Positions 15,483 through 23,713 of a stretch of 60,252 bases of DNA are shown piece after piece. The DNA lies in the IMG/VR virus record IMGVR_UViG_2562617057_000007; one strand, written 5' to 3'. Under the pieces are notes generated by a model. It saw only the letters and a list, made by a program, of their open reading frames with translations. It had not been told where the DNA came from and searched no databases. Within the stretch, counting starts at the first letter, position 1. Every line of letters starts with the position of its first letter. Made by a program: the position numbers and the translations under genes. This DNA is from a virus. Its lineage: Duplodnaviria; Heunggongvirae; Uroviricota; Caudoviricetes.

Positions 15483-15869
15483 TGATTCATCTTCATTGGC
15501 CTCGAATGCTTAGATTGTCTAAGTATCTGTCATTGTTGTATACTTAGCAATCCTAAGTTAACAGCCTTGTTTTGTCATATGAATAGTCGAGTAACCAACC
15601 CTGAGTCGTACATATTTTCTGCAATCATCTTAATTGGCAAAGATAACTTCACCAGTAACGAAGTAGCAAAAATTCTTATCGAGCGATTTTCACTTCCGAA
15701 AAATTATTTAAAGGCAAAAGCTTTTGCTTATAACCAAATTCAATCCCTGGTTAGAAAAGGATTATTAAACAAAGTAAGAAAAACGTAACCGTCTCATTTA
15801 AACCGTCTTTCGCCTCCCTTTCCTGTTTCCGATACTAATGTCCATTTTCGCAGTAAAGGGACATTTAAG

Positions 15870-16511
15870 ATGAATGCACGAAAAGCGGTACTGGCAGACA
15901 ATCCGGAATTGATCCTGCGTGTGCTACAACTGAGATTTGACGAGTCACTGTCGTACCCGCGCATTTCTGCGCAGACCGGTATCAGCAAAACCGCCATTTT
16001 TTCTCTGGTGAGGCGATTTCACCAGGTATTCACTGACTGGCCTCTTTCCGGGGAATATTCCTGCGTGCAACTGGCCCGGGCTTTGTTCCCGGGGCGATAC
16101 CCTTCAGCCCCGACAGTAACTCAGACTGTGAAAACAGAGAAAAACCGCCGGAACCGATTTTCACCGGAGTTTAAATGGAGACTTGTTCAGCAAACTCTTT
16201 TACCCGGTGCCTGTGTCGCACAAATAGCTCGTGAGAACGGAATCAACGATAACCTGCTCTTTAACTGGCGGCATCTCTGGCGTAACGGCGGCCTGCAGCC
16301 GACCGGCGAACATGAAACATCGCTACTTCCCGTGACGTTAACTCCGGAGCCGGATAATAAAATCCCGGCACCAGTGCAGATACCTGAACAGATGCCCGAC
16401 AGTCTGTGCTGTGAGCTGGTTCTGCCGGCCGGAACTCTCAGGCTGAAAGGTGAACTGACACCGGCGTTATTACAGACACTTATCCGCGAAATGAAAGGGA
16501 GCAGCCACTGA
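15870..16511 (+). CDS. IS66-family accessory protein OrfA (copy 1)
   Basis: 213 aa, identical to 20728..21369. Confidence 0.8.
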   Translation: MNARKAVLADNPELILRVLQLRFDESLSYPRISAQTGISKTAIFSLVRRFHQVFTDWPLSGEYSCVQLARALFPGRYPSAPTVTQTVKTEKNRRNRFSPEFKWRLVQQTLLPGACVAQIARENGINDNLLFNWRHLWRNGGLQPTGEHETSLLPVTLTPEPDNKIPAPVQIPEQMPDSLCCELVLPAGTLRLKGELTPALLQTLIREMKGSSH

Positions 16512-16612
16512 TGTCAGCGCCAGTGATATAAGACGGTAATTCGCCATTTGGATTGTCCGCTCCACCCAACATGTTGTTTCCTTAAGGTTCTCACACCAGA
16601 AAGGACATCAAC

Positions 16613-17785
16613 ATGCTGAGCAGAGAGGACTTTTACATGATAAAGCAAATGCGCCAGCAGGGCGCGTACATCGTCGATATTGCGACTCAGATTGGTTGCT
16701 CTGAACGGACGGTCAGACGCTACCTCAAATACCCTGAACCGCCAGCCAGAAAGACCCGCCACAAAATGGTTAAGCTGAAACCGTTTATGGATTACATCGA
16801 CATGCGCCTGGCAGAGAATGTCTGGAATAGCGAGGTTATCTTCGCGGAGATTAAGGCAATGGGTTATACGGGCGGACGTTCCATGCTGCGTTACTACATC
16901 CAGCCCAAACGTAAAATGCGTCCGTCAAAAAGAACAGTTCGCTTCGAAACTCAGCCTGGATACCAGCTCCAGCATGACTGGGGCGAAGTTGAGGTGGAGG
17001 TTGCCGGGCAACGGTGCAAAGTTAACTTTGCGGTTAATACGCTGGGGTTCTCCCGCAGCTTCCATGTCTTCGCCGCACCAAAACAGGATGCTGAGCATAC
17101 CTACGAATCACTGGTTCGCGCCTTCCGCTACTTCGGTGGTTGTGTGAAAACGGTGCTGGTTGATAACCAGAAGGCTGCGGTGCTGAAGAATAACAACGGG
17201 AAAGTCGTGTTCAACTCCGGATTCCTGTTGCTGGCTGACCACTATAACTTCCTGCCACGGGCATGCCGTCCACGCAGGGCCAGAACAAAAGGTAAGGTTG
17301 AGCGGATGGTGAAATACCTCAAGGAGAACTTCTTCGTCCGGTACCGCAGGTTCGACAGCTTCACTCATGTCAATCAACAACTGGAGCAATGGATAGCCGA
17401 TGTGGCTGACAAACGGGAGCTTCGCCAGTTCAAAGAAACGCCGGAACAGCGCTTCGCGCTGGAGCAGGAACATCTGCAGCCGTTACCGGATACAGACTTC
17501 GATACCAGTTACTTCGATATCCGCCATGTGTCCTGGGACAGCTATATCGAGGTTGGTGGTAATCGTTACAGCGTTCCCGAAGCGCTGTGTGGTCAGCCGG
17601 TATCGATACGAATATCGCTGGATGACGAGTTGCGGATCTACAGTAATGAGAAACTGGTGGCCTCACATCGCCTCTGTTCAGCATCGTCTGGCTGGCAGAC
17701 AGTGCCGGAGCATCACGCCCCGCTCTGGCAGCAGGTCAGTCAGGTGGAACATCGACCACTGAGTGCCTATGAGGAGCTGTTGTGA
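16613..17785 (+). CDS. istA: IS21-family transposase IstA
   Basis: 390 aa; N-terminal HTH and DDE-type integrase core. Confidence 0.85.
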
Positions 17786-18582
17786 TGCATGAACTGGAAG
17801 TCCTGCTGAGTCGCCTGAAAATGGAGCATCTGAGTTATCACGTTGAAAGCCTGCTGGAACAGGCAGCTAAAAAAGAGCTGAACTACCGGGAGTTCCTGTG
17901 CATGGCGCTACAGCAGGAATGGAACGGCAGGCATCAGCGCGGTATGGAGTCCAGGCTGAAGCAGGCTCGTCTGCCGTGGGTCAAAACGCTGGAGCAGTTC
18001 GACTTTACCTTCCAGCCGGGCATCGACCGTAAGGTTGTCCGGGAACTGGCTGGTCTGGCGTTCGTGGAGCGCAGCGAAAACGTGATCCTGCTGGGCCCTC
18101 CTGGTGTCGGAAAAACTCATCTGGCCATAGCTCTTGGCGTGAAAGCGGTGGATGCGGGACATCGGGTACTGTTTATGCCACTGGACAGACTGATCGCGAC
18201 ACTGATGAAAGCGAAACAGGAAAACCGGCTGGAGCGTCAGCTACAGCAACTGAGTTATGCCCGGGTGTTGATCCTGGATGAAATAGGCTATCTGCCGATG
18301 AACAGAGAGGAAGCCAGTCTGTTCTTCCGGCTACTGAACCGTCGATATGAAAAAGCGAGCATCATACTGACGTCAAACAAAGGGTTCGCAGACTGGGGAG
18401 AAATGTTCGGAGATCACGTACTGGCAACAGCGATCCTGGATCGGCTGCTACATCACTCAACCACGCTGAATATCAAAGGAGAGAGTTACCGGTTAAAAGA
18501 GAAACGTAAAGCTGGAGTGCTGACCAAAAACACAACGCCAATCAGTGATGATGAAATGGTGGAAAGCGGACAGCATCAGTAA
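17782..18582 (+). CDS. istB: IS21-family helper ATPase IstB
   Basis: 266 aa; Walker [10 protein letters not shown] and Walker B LILDEIGY. Confidence 0.85.
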
Positions 18583-21369: not shown

Positions 21370-21716
21370 TGATATCTCTCCCTGCCGGTTCGCGTATCTG
21401 GCTGGTTGCCGGTATCACCGACATGCGAAATGGTTTTAACGGCCTGGCATCAAAAGTTCAGAACGTCCTGAAGGATGACCCGTTCTCCGGGCATCTGTTC
21501 ATCTTCCGCGGACGCCGGGGTGACCAGATAAAAGTGTTGTGGGCTGACAGTGACGGACTGTGCCTCTTCACCAAACGCCTGGAGCGGGGCCGCTTCGTCT
21601 GGCCGGTTACCCGTGACGGCAAGGTGCACCTTACTCCGGCTCAGTTATCTATGCTTCTTGAAGGTATCAACTGGAAGCACCCGAAACGAACGGAACGCGC
21701 TGGCATCCGCATATAA
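21369..21716 (+). CDS. IS66-family OrfB (copy 2)
   Basis: 115 aa. Confidence 0.8.
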   Translation: MISLPAGSRIWLVAGITDMRNGFNGLASKVQNVLKDDPFSGHLFIFRGRRGDQIKVLWADSDGLCLFTKRLERGRFVWPVTRDGKVHLTPAQLSMLLEGINWKHPKRTERAGIRI

Positions 21717-21735
21717 CCCGTTGTAAAGTGAGGAT

Positions 21736-23307
21736 ATGGACACCTCACTTGCTCATGAGAATGCCCGCCTGCGGGCACTGTTGCAGACGCAACAGGACAC
21801 CATCCGCCAGATGGCGAAATACAACCGCCTGCTCTCACAGCGGGTGGCGGCTTATGCTTCCGAAATCAACCGGCTGAAGGCGCTGGTTGCGAAACTGCAG
21901 CGCATGCAGTTCGGTAAAAGCTCAGAAAAACTTCGCGCTAAAACCGAACGACAGATACAGGAAGCACAGGAGCGAATCAGCGCACTTCAGGAAGAAATGG
22001 CGGAAACGCTGGGTGAGCAATATGACCCGGTACTGCCATCCGCCCTGCGCCAGTCTTCAGCCCGTAAACCGTTACCGACCTCACTTCCCCGTGAAACCCG
22101 GGTCATCCGGCCGGAAGAGGAATGCTGTCCGGCCTGTGGTGGTGACCTCAGTCCTCTGGGGTGTGATGTGTCAGAGCAACTGGAGCTTATCAGCAGCGCT
22201 TTTAAGGTTATCGAAACACAACGTCCGAAACTGGCCTGTTGCCGGTGCGACCATATCGTGCAGGCACCAGTACCTTCAAAACCCATTGCACGCAGTTATG
22301 CCGGAGCGGGGCTTCTGGCTCATATCGTCACCGGGAAGTATGCAGACCATCTGCCGTTATACCGCCAGTCAGAAATATACCGTCGTCAGGGCGTGGAACT
22401 GAGCCGCGCCACGCTGGGGCGCTGGACCGGTGCCGTTGCTGAACTGCTGGAGCCGCTGTATGACGTGCTGCGCCAGTATGTACTGATGCCCGGTAAAGTC
22501 CATGCGGATGATATCCCCGTTCCGGTCCAGGAGCCGGGCAGTGGTAAAACAAGAACTGCCCGGCTGTGGGTCTATGTCCGTGATGACCGTAACGCCGGTT
22601 CACAGATGCCCCCGGCGGTCTGGTTCGCGTACAGCCCGGACCGGAAAGGTATCCATCCACAAAATCACCTGGCCGGTTACAGCGGTGTGCTTCAGGCCGA
22701 TGCTTACGGTGGTTACCGGGTGTTATACGAATCCGGCAGAATAACGGAAGCCGCGTGTATGGCTCATGCCCGGAGAAAAATCCACGATGTGCATGCAAGA
22801 GTGCCCACCGACATCACCACGGAAGCCCTGCAGCGTATCGGTGAACTGTATGCCATCGAGGCAGAGGTCCGGGGCTGTTCAGCAGAACAGCGTCTGGCGG
22901 CAAGAAAAGCCAGAGCCGCGCCACTGATGCAGTCACTGTATGACTGGATACAGCAACAGATGAAAACACTGTCGCGTCACTCGGATACGGCAAAAGCGTT
23001 CGCATACCTGCTGAAACAGTGGGATGCACTGAACGTGTACTGCAGTAATGGCTGGGTGGAAATCGACAACAACATTGCAGAGAACGCCTTACGGGGAGTG
23101 GCCGTAGGCCGGAAAAACTGGCTCTTCGCGGGTTCTGACAGCGGTGGTGAACATGCTGCGGTGTTGTACTCGCTGATCGGCACATGCCGTCTGAACAATG
23201 TGGAGCCAGAAAAGTGGCTGCGTTACGTCATTGAACATATCCAGGACTGGCCGGCAAACCGGGTACGCGATCTGTTGCCCTGGAAAGTTGATCTGAGCTC
23301 TCAGTAA
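21736..23307 (+). CDS. IS66-family transposase OrfC (copy 2)
   Basis: 523 aa. Confidence 0.85.
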
Positions 23308-23713
23308 ATATCAATACGGTTCTGGCGAGCCGCTTACATTTATACTCAGTCACATCAGAATTTAATATCGCAACAGAATGCGTGGAATTAATTGAGGCAA
23401 CCCCAAAGTCTTCCTGTCAACTTGTTTCAAGTGCTACCAACCATGAACACAGAAATGTAAATATCCAAATAAAGTCTCTTATTGAAAAATACAGCAGTGA
23501 GTTGGCGAAAGTATCAGGAGCAAAGGAGATTTATGAAGAATTGATAGTTGCTGTGCCGAGCAGGGAAAATGAATTCAGGAAGCTTTCTCTTGAACAAGAG
23601 AAAAAACACATCAAGATAAATGAAAAAATAAATACATTAATTGGAATTATTAATCAATCTCTTGCAGTAACGCAATGAATTTTAACAAGTATTTGAAGAT
23701 AAATGGAGTCATG

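Follow-up and report, generated by a model that had tools for sequence, protein, structure and literature searches.

A probable IS66-family insertion hotspot in a predicted winged-helix regulator gene of a prophage-borne GInt island

We analyzed a 60,252-nt stretch of viral DNA (IMG/VR record IMGVR_UViG_2562617057_000007; here called the window, meaning that whole stretch, to whose positions coordinates such as 15785..23337 refer) in which a small gene of a GInt-type genomic island, encoding a predicted winged-helix regulator, is interrupted by two copies of one insertion sequence (IS) of the IS66 family. We propose that the gene was probably struck by two independent transpositions of a multicopy ISCro1/IS679-like element, 14 bp apart and in the same orientation, at an intrinsic IS66-family hotspot, as the anatomy of the insertions and the re-use of one octamer by another member of the family suggest. 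The identical transposase TnpC of the element occurs at ten places, all in the chromosome of the enteroinvasive Escherichia coli (EIEC) O144 strain 53638 (GCA_000167915.2, AAKB02000001.1), which carries at least 10 copies of the element and contains this part of the window at ~3.316-3.326 Mb.

Anatomy of the double insertion

Repeat search and direct base comparison agree that both copies measure 2,695 bp, are 100% identical and stand head to tail in the same orientation with 29 bp between them, 20643..23337 being matched without a mismatch by 15785..16513 plus 18640..20613. A sequence-only reading of the window had described two identical 2,695-bp IS66-family copies, 29 bp apart and in one orientation, at targets 14 bp apart; the base comparison bears this out, as it does the perfect 8-bp target duplication claimed for copy 2, since ATTTATAC stands on both sides of that copy, at 20635-20642 and 23338-23345. 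The 8-bp duplication claimed for copy 1, (A)GAAAAAC, has to be shortened. Copy 1 has AGAAAAAC as its left and GAAAAACA as its right flank, where the intact allele reads ..GTAAGAAAAACAGGCG.. and ..AAAGTAAGAAAAACAGGCG.., and compared with this uninterrupted allele only the 7 bp GAAAAAC are duplicated, the left repeat being the last 7 nt of the 5' part of the disrupted gene (15778-15784). In the native gene, the targets of the two copies lie 14 bp apart (for the composition of the spacer between them, see Table 1).

Joining 15567..15784, 20621..20642 and 23346..23678 restores a frame of 573 nt without a stop, giving 190 codons from a TTG or 186 amino acids from the ATG at 15579, with a G+C content of 33.7% compared with 49.8% for the window. 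The two flanking open reading frames (ORFs) thus fuse in frame into one AT-rich protein of the ~180 amino acids that had been predicted. The database search proposed as a check turned up neither of the outcomes that would have spoken against the fusion, namely stops or unrelated genes: E. coli G4/9, H15, H1, and others carry annotated intact genes (WP_001088752.1, 'hypothetical protein') to which the reconstruction is 100% identical across its 573 nt. Both insertions fall in codons 68-77, corresponding to the wing of the predicted winged helix. Given 10-20 copies of the element in a 5.07-Mb genome, the probability that two of them lie within 30 bp of each other is ~5e-4 to 2e-3, and chance proximity of the two copies is excluded.

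The target octamer and the case for a hotspot

Inspection of other genomes for insertions at this site, the second check proposed, revealed ISEc22, a different IS66-family element of 2,441 bp, at the same position and with the same duplication ATTTATAC in E. coli GCA_054664235.1, whose allele is 95% identical. Deletion end points point to the same few bases. In a Logan contig (L003, 6001-6756), sequence homologous to the gene opens with the octamer ATTTATAC, exactly from its first base, and is preceded by the N-terminal 140 codons of GinA, so that a deletion of roughly 6 kb ends at the octamer, while a different deletion in strain KH_005 begins inside the neighboring helix-turn-helix (HTH) gene and ends ~4 bp after it. 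The L003 deletion fuses the N terminus of GinA in frame to the winged-helix protein's C-terminal two thirds, and no IS stands at the junction of the two deletions that end at, or 4 bp after, ATTTATAC (in L003 and at about 5000 in L012). In GF66.2, an IS903-like element lies 28 bp downstream of the octamer. Draft contig L010 starts at the base right after ATTTATAC, which we count only as weak evidence because four public contigs ending at codon 69, considered as further insertions at site 1, proved to end in native bases (..GAAAAACAGG) rather than in IS sequence, as assembly-graph breaks do. With the window's own insertions left out, there are 11 independent breakpoints in the 573-nt gene, and 4 of them cluster within 18 bp (P = 2.7e-4); without the weak contig-start case, P would be ~3e-3, a rough estimate rather than a computed value.

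The hotspot octamer forms the right half of an imperfect 16-bp palindrome, GTATCAAT|ATTTATAC, which matches at 14 of 16 positions, is conserved among the aligned alleles and adjoins a WATCAA motif resembling the core of an integration host factor (IHF) site. AT content alone does not explain the hotspot, which is 70% AT, since other parts of the gene are richer, its 3' end reaching 87%. Two other candidate causes were set aside. Mimicry of the subterminal IS ends (ATTTAAAC, TATCAATA) was not significant, an 8-mer match or better being present in 53 of 264 control windows, and a by-eye comparison of the hotspot with the attL/attR core TA[T/A]GTTAAAT gave no similarity that would suggest a GInt pseudo-att site.

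A target bias of the IS subgroup contributes to the picture. Across 29 insertion sites, in 13 of which both flanks were verified, C occupies duplication position 8, the base next to the left end, in 17 sites (P = 1.2e-4), W-C occupies positions 7-8 in 13 sites, and A is enriched at positions 5-6. A scan of viral contigs with an 18-mer yielded mainly one inherited prophage insertion and left ~14 distinct right flanks usable, and one of genome contigs with a 16-mer from the IS right end gave largely random hits in unrelated phyla. Both sites in the window (ATTTATAC and AGAAAAAC) agree with the A5-A6/C8 bias, and because this bias is asymmetric it can account for the shared orientation of the two copies.

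Rather more tentatively, the palindrome GTATCAAT|ATTTATAC might be a structurally special, possibly protein-bound site that draws IS66 transposases in either orientation and is prone to deletion, an idea we regard as doubtful. If true, it would be the first defined sequence-specific hotspot of the IS66 family, and the HTH or winged-helix regulators of the island itself could use the site as an operator that lies inside a coding sequence.

Proposed course of events and rival explanations

We propose the following course of events. A first and a second insertion of the multicopy element would each have generated its own duplication, the 8 bp ATTTATAC in one case and the 7 bp GAAAAAC in the other, and an IS21 element would later have entered copy 1 at the tnpA/tnpB junction, uncoupling its genes. 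These elements may tend to insert into or beside copies already present, which possibly favored the second insertion, and the outcome would be the loss of a probable DNA-binding regulator of the GInt island. The insertions appear to be recent, since the copies are 100% identical and, as direct repeats, have not yet recombined. The second would have been neutral, the gene being already dead after the first hit.

The tendency to land near resident copies is suggested by other arrangements. Head-to-tail IS66 pairs within a few hundred bp occur in 6 of 5,426 complete E. coli genomes; in the three pairs that were read (TUM9757, JNE21-003, and E1433 p4) the spacers are 82, 100, and 143 bp. Flanking duplications of their own are present at both copies in JNE21-003 and at the first one in E1433; one of the JNE21-003 duplications, TTTTATAC, is a near-twin of the hotspot octamer. 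In TUM9757, one IS66 copy lies within the inverted repeat of another. Self-proximal insertion may be a contributing tendency rather than an established property. Elsewhere in the E. coli 53638 chromosome (L177, 4068252-4075823), IS positions 1-130 are followed by a full copy, all inside one 8-bp duplication GCCTTACT, a composite whose sequence fits the product that would be expected from an IS66-into-IS66 insertion followed by recombination.

Several observations weigh against a hotspot origin of the double insertion. (i) Re-use of one octamer goes far beyond what so weak a target bias could explain, and the orientation of ISEc22 at the octamer is opposite to that of the window copies. (ii) Re-use of the octamer by a mobile element is seen in one other strain only, the two deletion ends and the contig start being indirect. 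(iii) Searches for the left, middle, right, and ISEc22 junctions found none of them in the 5,426 complete E. coli genomes and recovered no single-insertion intermediate that would give the order of insertion. (iv) Copy 1 is atypical in duplicating 7 bp where the other duplication-bearing copies of the same genome have 8 bp. (v) The excess of close IS66 pairs over random expectation, which is only a crude estimate, is modest. (vi) The tandem IS66 arrangement is read from assembled sequence.

The sequence-only reading had offered a hotspot or selection for inactivation as explanations of the double hit. The first is supported by ISEc22, the deletion ends and the target bias, whereas selection is not supported as the cause of the double hit because the second insertion struck a gene that was already dead; at most it would cover the first. 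A model in which inactivation was advantageous, for example by relieving island-linked repression or toxicity, and the insertions were selected knock-outs could draw on the frequency and variety of damage: among records matching the gene in complete E. coli genomes, 26 of 248 span less than 80% of it, and the examined truncated copies and other public contigs are damaged by IS66, IS903-like, and Tn3-family insertions, deletions, and frameshifts. We nevertheless think selection unlikely. It would be expected to give scattered knock-outs rather than two different elements on the same 8 bp; at the DNA level, about 90% of the copies span 80% or more of the gene; and the intact alleles are under purifying selection (dN/dS 0.21-0.35), which also indicates that the winged-helix gene is a real gene. 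Accessory genes on mobile islands commonly decay without positive selection, and about 10% truncated copies with diverse damage fits such ordinary decay.

Equally, we judge it improbable that local hopping or self-targeting acted without any intrinsic hotspot, the first copy arriving by chance and the second, either made from it or captured by transposase bound to its ends, integrating beside it. The identity of the two copies, the other close head-to-tail pairs and the IS66-into-IS66 insertions in this and other genomes would all suit such a process, but it leaves unexplained both the deletion ends at the octamer and the presence of ISEc22 at the identical octamer in an unrelated strain, where it has no resident copy for a neighbor, and this process serves better as a contributing factor than as an alternative. 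Finally, mis-assembly of the repeat or doubling of a single IS66 insertion by unequal crossing-over is very hard to credit even though identical 2.7-kb repeats 29 bp apart are difficult to assemble and AAKB02000001.1 is an older assembly, because the copies differ in their target duplications, copy 1 holds a nested IS21 with a duplication of its own, and the spacer consists of precisely the 14 native bp and one of each duplication, with only 7 bp repeated before copy 1 where a tandem duplication or mis-assembly would have left all 29 bp.

The disrupted gene, the inserted elements, and the island

The gene is present in 243 of the 5,426 complete E. coli genomes; its homologues are restricted to Enterobacterales and all are unannotated. 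It belongs to an orphan family, with 47 members in a profile search of 1.84 billion protein representatives, and neither that search nor Pfam or NCBIfam returned a functional family for its product. Pfam and NCBIfam gave no PadR or MarR match either, so that the protein does not class with PadR-like regulators by sequence, and PADLOC gave a weak match to the AbiEi winged helix (E 7.5e-4). An AlphaFold (AF2) model (pLDDT 85) predicts a winged helix-turn-helix at the N terminus, joined by a disordered linker to a long helical hairpin, for which the best Foldseek matches were smu.1604c, VanR, and PadR-type regulators at E ~4e-4 and TM scores of only 0.31-0.36. On the basis of this model, the gene product is most probably a dimeric DNA-binding regulator combining what may be a PadR-like winged-helix fold with a coiled coil.

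Table 1. Features of the GInt-type island and of the double insertion, with positions in the 60,252-nt window
Feature	Position	Strand	Description
GInt-type genomic island with disrupted gene	9083..31898	+	ginABCD, cargo, AT-rich 3' end; ends are imperfect 10-nt direct repeats TATGTTAAAT, TAAGTTAAAT
ginABCD-like operon	9222..14941	+	456-aa and 516-aa tyrosine recombinases, 800-aa GinC-like, 147-aa GinD-like
DUF2384/Xre_MbcA_ParS_C fragment ORF, 64 aa	14972-15166	-	PF09722; just downstream of Xre-type HTH gene
Xre-type HTH gene, 110 aa	15150..15482	-	Divergent from disrupted gene; PADLOC Control_protein PDLC03667, E 5.7e-26; RstR-like in NCBIfam
Disrupted winged-helix gene, 5' part	15579..15784	+	Codons 1-68 plus 2 nt
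IS66-family copy 1, left part	15785..16511	+	IS positions 1-727; tnpA 15870-16511; 100% identical to copy 2
Nested IS21	16512..18641	+	2,130 bp; istA 16613-17785, istB 17782-18582; rve/Mu-transpos_C_2 and IstB_IS21 domains
IS66-family copy 1, right part	18642..20613	+	IS positions 724-2695; tnpB, tnpC 19012-20583; 100% identical to copy 2
Spacer, 29 bp	20614..20642	+	GAAAAAC (copy 1 right duplication) + AGGCGTGTATCAAT (14 bp, native gene) + ATTTATAC (copy 2 left duplication); agrees with intact allele
IS66-family copy 2, intact	20643..23337	+	tnpA 20728-21369, tnpB 21369-21716, tnpC 21736-23307; ISCro1/IS679-like; ends GTAACCG...CCGCTTAC
Copy 2 right duplication and disrupted gene, 3' part	23338..23678	+	ATTTATAC (23338-23345), then gene up to stop codon
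Island cargo, convergent with disrupted gene	23987..31453	-	M48/YgjP-like peptidase, HsdR, YecA-like, HsdS, HsdM (type I restriction-modification)

The inserted element has the three genes tnpA, tnpB, and tnpC in series together with a DDE_Tnp_IS66 transposase, as expected of the IS66 family. The proteins of copy 2 match HTH_Tnp_1 (TnpA), TnpB_IS66 (E 4.7e-40), and DDE_Tnp_IS66 (E 4e-104) with zf-IS66, LZ, and C-terminal domains; TnpC, of 523 amino acids, scores 477.7 bits against the NCBIfam transpos_IS66 equivalog, whose cut-off is 180. Its terminal inverted repeats are GTAAGCG-like (left GTAACCGTCTC..., right ...GAGCCGCTTAC, in reverse complement GTAAGCGGCTC), and close relatives carry the annotation 'ISCro1 family' or 'IS679 family'. 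The literature value for the target duplication of the family is 8 bp, which is what we found for copy 2 and for seven other copies in the same genome, one of them with a mismatch, copy 1 being the exception. In JNE21-003 (L173, 1417-4120), one IS679 copy has a 9-bp direct repeat, CATTATTTA, on its flanks; together with the 7 bp at copy 1 this indicates that these elements do not always duplicate exactly 8 bp.

Within copy 1, the nested element has the istA-then-istB order, TG..CA termini and short duplication of the IS21 family (IstB_IS21 E 2.5e-90; ends TGTCAGCG...GTTGACA). The limits in Table 1 are the most likely placement, with TG...CA termini and a 4-bp duplication CTGA at 16508-16511 and 18642-18645; an annotated IS21 in TUM9757, to which the element is 99% identical, has an end that bears out these termini. 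Of the 8-bp overlap that the sequence-only reading had noted around this insert, 4 bp stand as that duplication and the rest is terminal ambiguity. The insertion point is the overlapping tnpA stop and tnpB start of copy 1 (..CACTGATG..), so that both ORFs of copy 1 are unbroken but 2.1 kb apart. IS21-family elements (IS21, IS100) recur inside or beside paired head-to-tail IS66 copies, in TUM9757 (L172), JNE21-003 (L173), E1433 plasmid p4 (L174), and the window (16512-18641), which suggests that they favor IS66 DNA or regions where IS elements pile up.

The island that carries the disrupted gene sits inserted inside a prophage, since 8600-9095 and 31890-32400, on its two sides, adjoin each other without interruption in 94 E. 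coli prophages of complete genomes, where the empty site reads ...CATTATGTTAAATAACCTTC.... It lies between a phiTE_015-family gene and the lambda-family holin of the prophage, whose early genes occupy 1-9 kb and whose lysis and structural genes occupy ~32-57 kb, the left flank running from 1 to 9082 and the right from 31899 to about 57300. A related island in G4/9 and many other strains adjoins hipBA instead.

The island has the features of GInts. At its 5' end stands a ginABCD set of three tyrosine-recombinase-like genes and a small fourth gene, an order also seen in G4/9 and other loci; the 456-aa and 516-aa ORFs match Phage_integrase, and the 800-aa ORF does so weakly (E 0.059). GInts integrate at specific sites flanked by imperfect direct repeats of 10-11 nt; here the flanking repeats are of 10 nt, and relatives have the site empty. 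The architecture of ginABCD, cargo, and AT-rich 3' end matches that described by Bardaji 2017 (PMC5385486). A GInt would also be expected to excise as a circle in a way that depends on all four gin genes.

The cargo convergent with the disrupted gene is 99.95% identical to that of the G4/9 island. In all 8 island contexts that were read and have an intact post-ginD region, the winged-helix gene directly follows ginD and is divergent from the Xre-type HTH gene, for which dN/dS is 0.00-0.31 and at most 0.09 in 5 of 6 pairs; the remnant loci L003, L004, and L006-L008 are without this module. The HTH and winged-helix pair behaves as a conserved module at the start of the cargo, most simply one that would regulate the island. 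The cargo after the pair varies and is often a defense system, such as type I restriction-modification, Hachiman HamA with a helicase, AAA_15/SMC ATPases, MComp1 with a Cap4-like nuclease, or a UvrD-like helicase (L002, L009, L010, L187, L188), and these enterobacterial GInts look like carriers of defense systems. The 110-aa HTH gene and the 64-aa DUF2384 ORF overlap (14972-15482, minus strand), no toxin gene adjoins them, and RefSeq flags the DUF2384 fragment as partial in strain CUPS05; together they have the look of an antitoxin, split in two, from a RES/ParT-type toxin-antitoxin system.

Comparison with known systems

The double insertion is a new example of known IS biology, not a new system, and does not change current concepts. 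Pathogenic E. coli, Shigella-like EIEC, and plasmids are rich in IS66-family elements, and a re-used 8-bp target together with the A5, A6, and C8 bias offers a testable handle on how the transposase chooses site and orientation. The case also indicates that IS-driven pseudogenization in IS-rich genomes can be read without invoking selection. As a by-product, it defines a conserved HTH and winged-helix module at the cargo start of enterobacterial GInts, which carry variable defense cargo and can sit in prophages.

Like other GInt islands (PMC5385486), this one has ginABCD at its 5' end, variable cargo often with restriction-modification, an AT-rich 3' end, imperfect 10-nt repeats, and an empty site in relatives; unlike them, it has integrated into a prophage and not beside hipA, where such islands usually sit, and its enterobacterial lineage keeps the HTH and winged-helix pair straight after ginD. 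The product of the disrupted gene may resemble regulators of the PadR family (PadR, VanR, AphA) and of MarR type in its predicted N-terminal winged HTH, C-terminal helical domain of the dimerization type and length of ~180 amino acids, and differs from them in belonging to an orphan family without a Pfam or NCBIfam match and with a TM score of ~0.33.

The element shares with IS66, IS679, ISCro1, and ISEc22 the tnpA-tnpB-tnpC order, the DDE_Tnp_IS66 transposase, GTAA...TTAC termini, the 8-bp duplication (copy 2), and its multicopy occurrence in pathogenic E. coli. What sets the present case apart is the use of one octamer by two members of the family, the weak asymmetric bias (A5, A6, C8), and the 7-bp duplication of copy 1; a literature search found no description of a target preference of the IS66 family. 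Hotspots are known for other IS families, such as IS30, and IS903 and Tn10 in AT-rich or bent DNA. As at those sites, repeated independent insertions fall here within a few bp, partly over an imperfect palindrome, in AT-rich, horizontally acquired DNA; in contrast to them, the site has no strong consensus or demonstrated likeness to the element ends, and deletion end points cluster there too.

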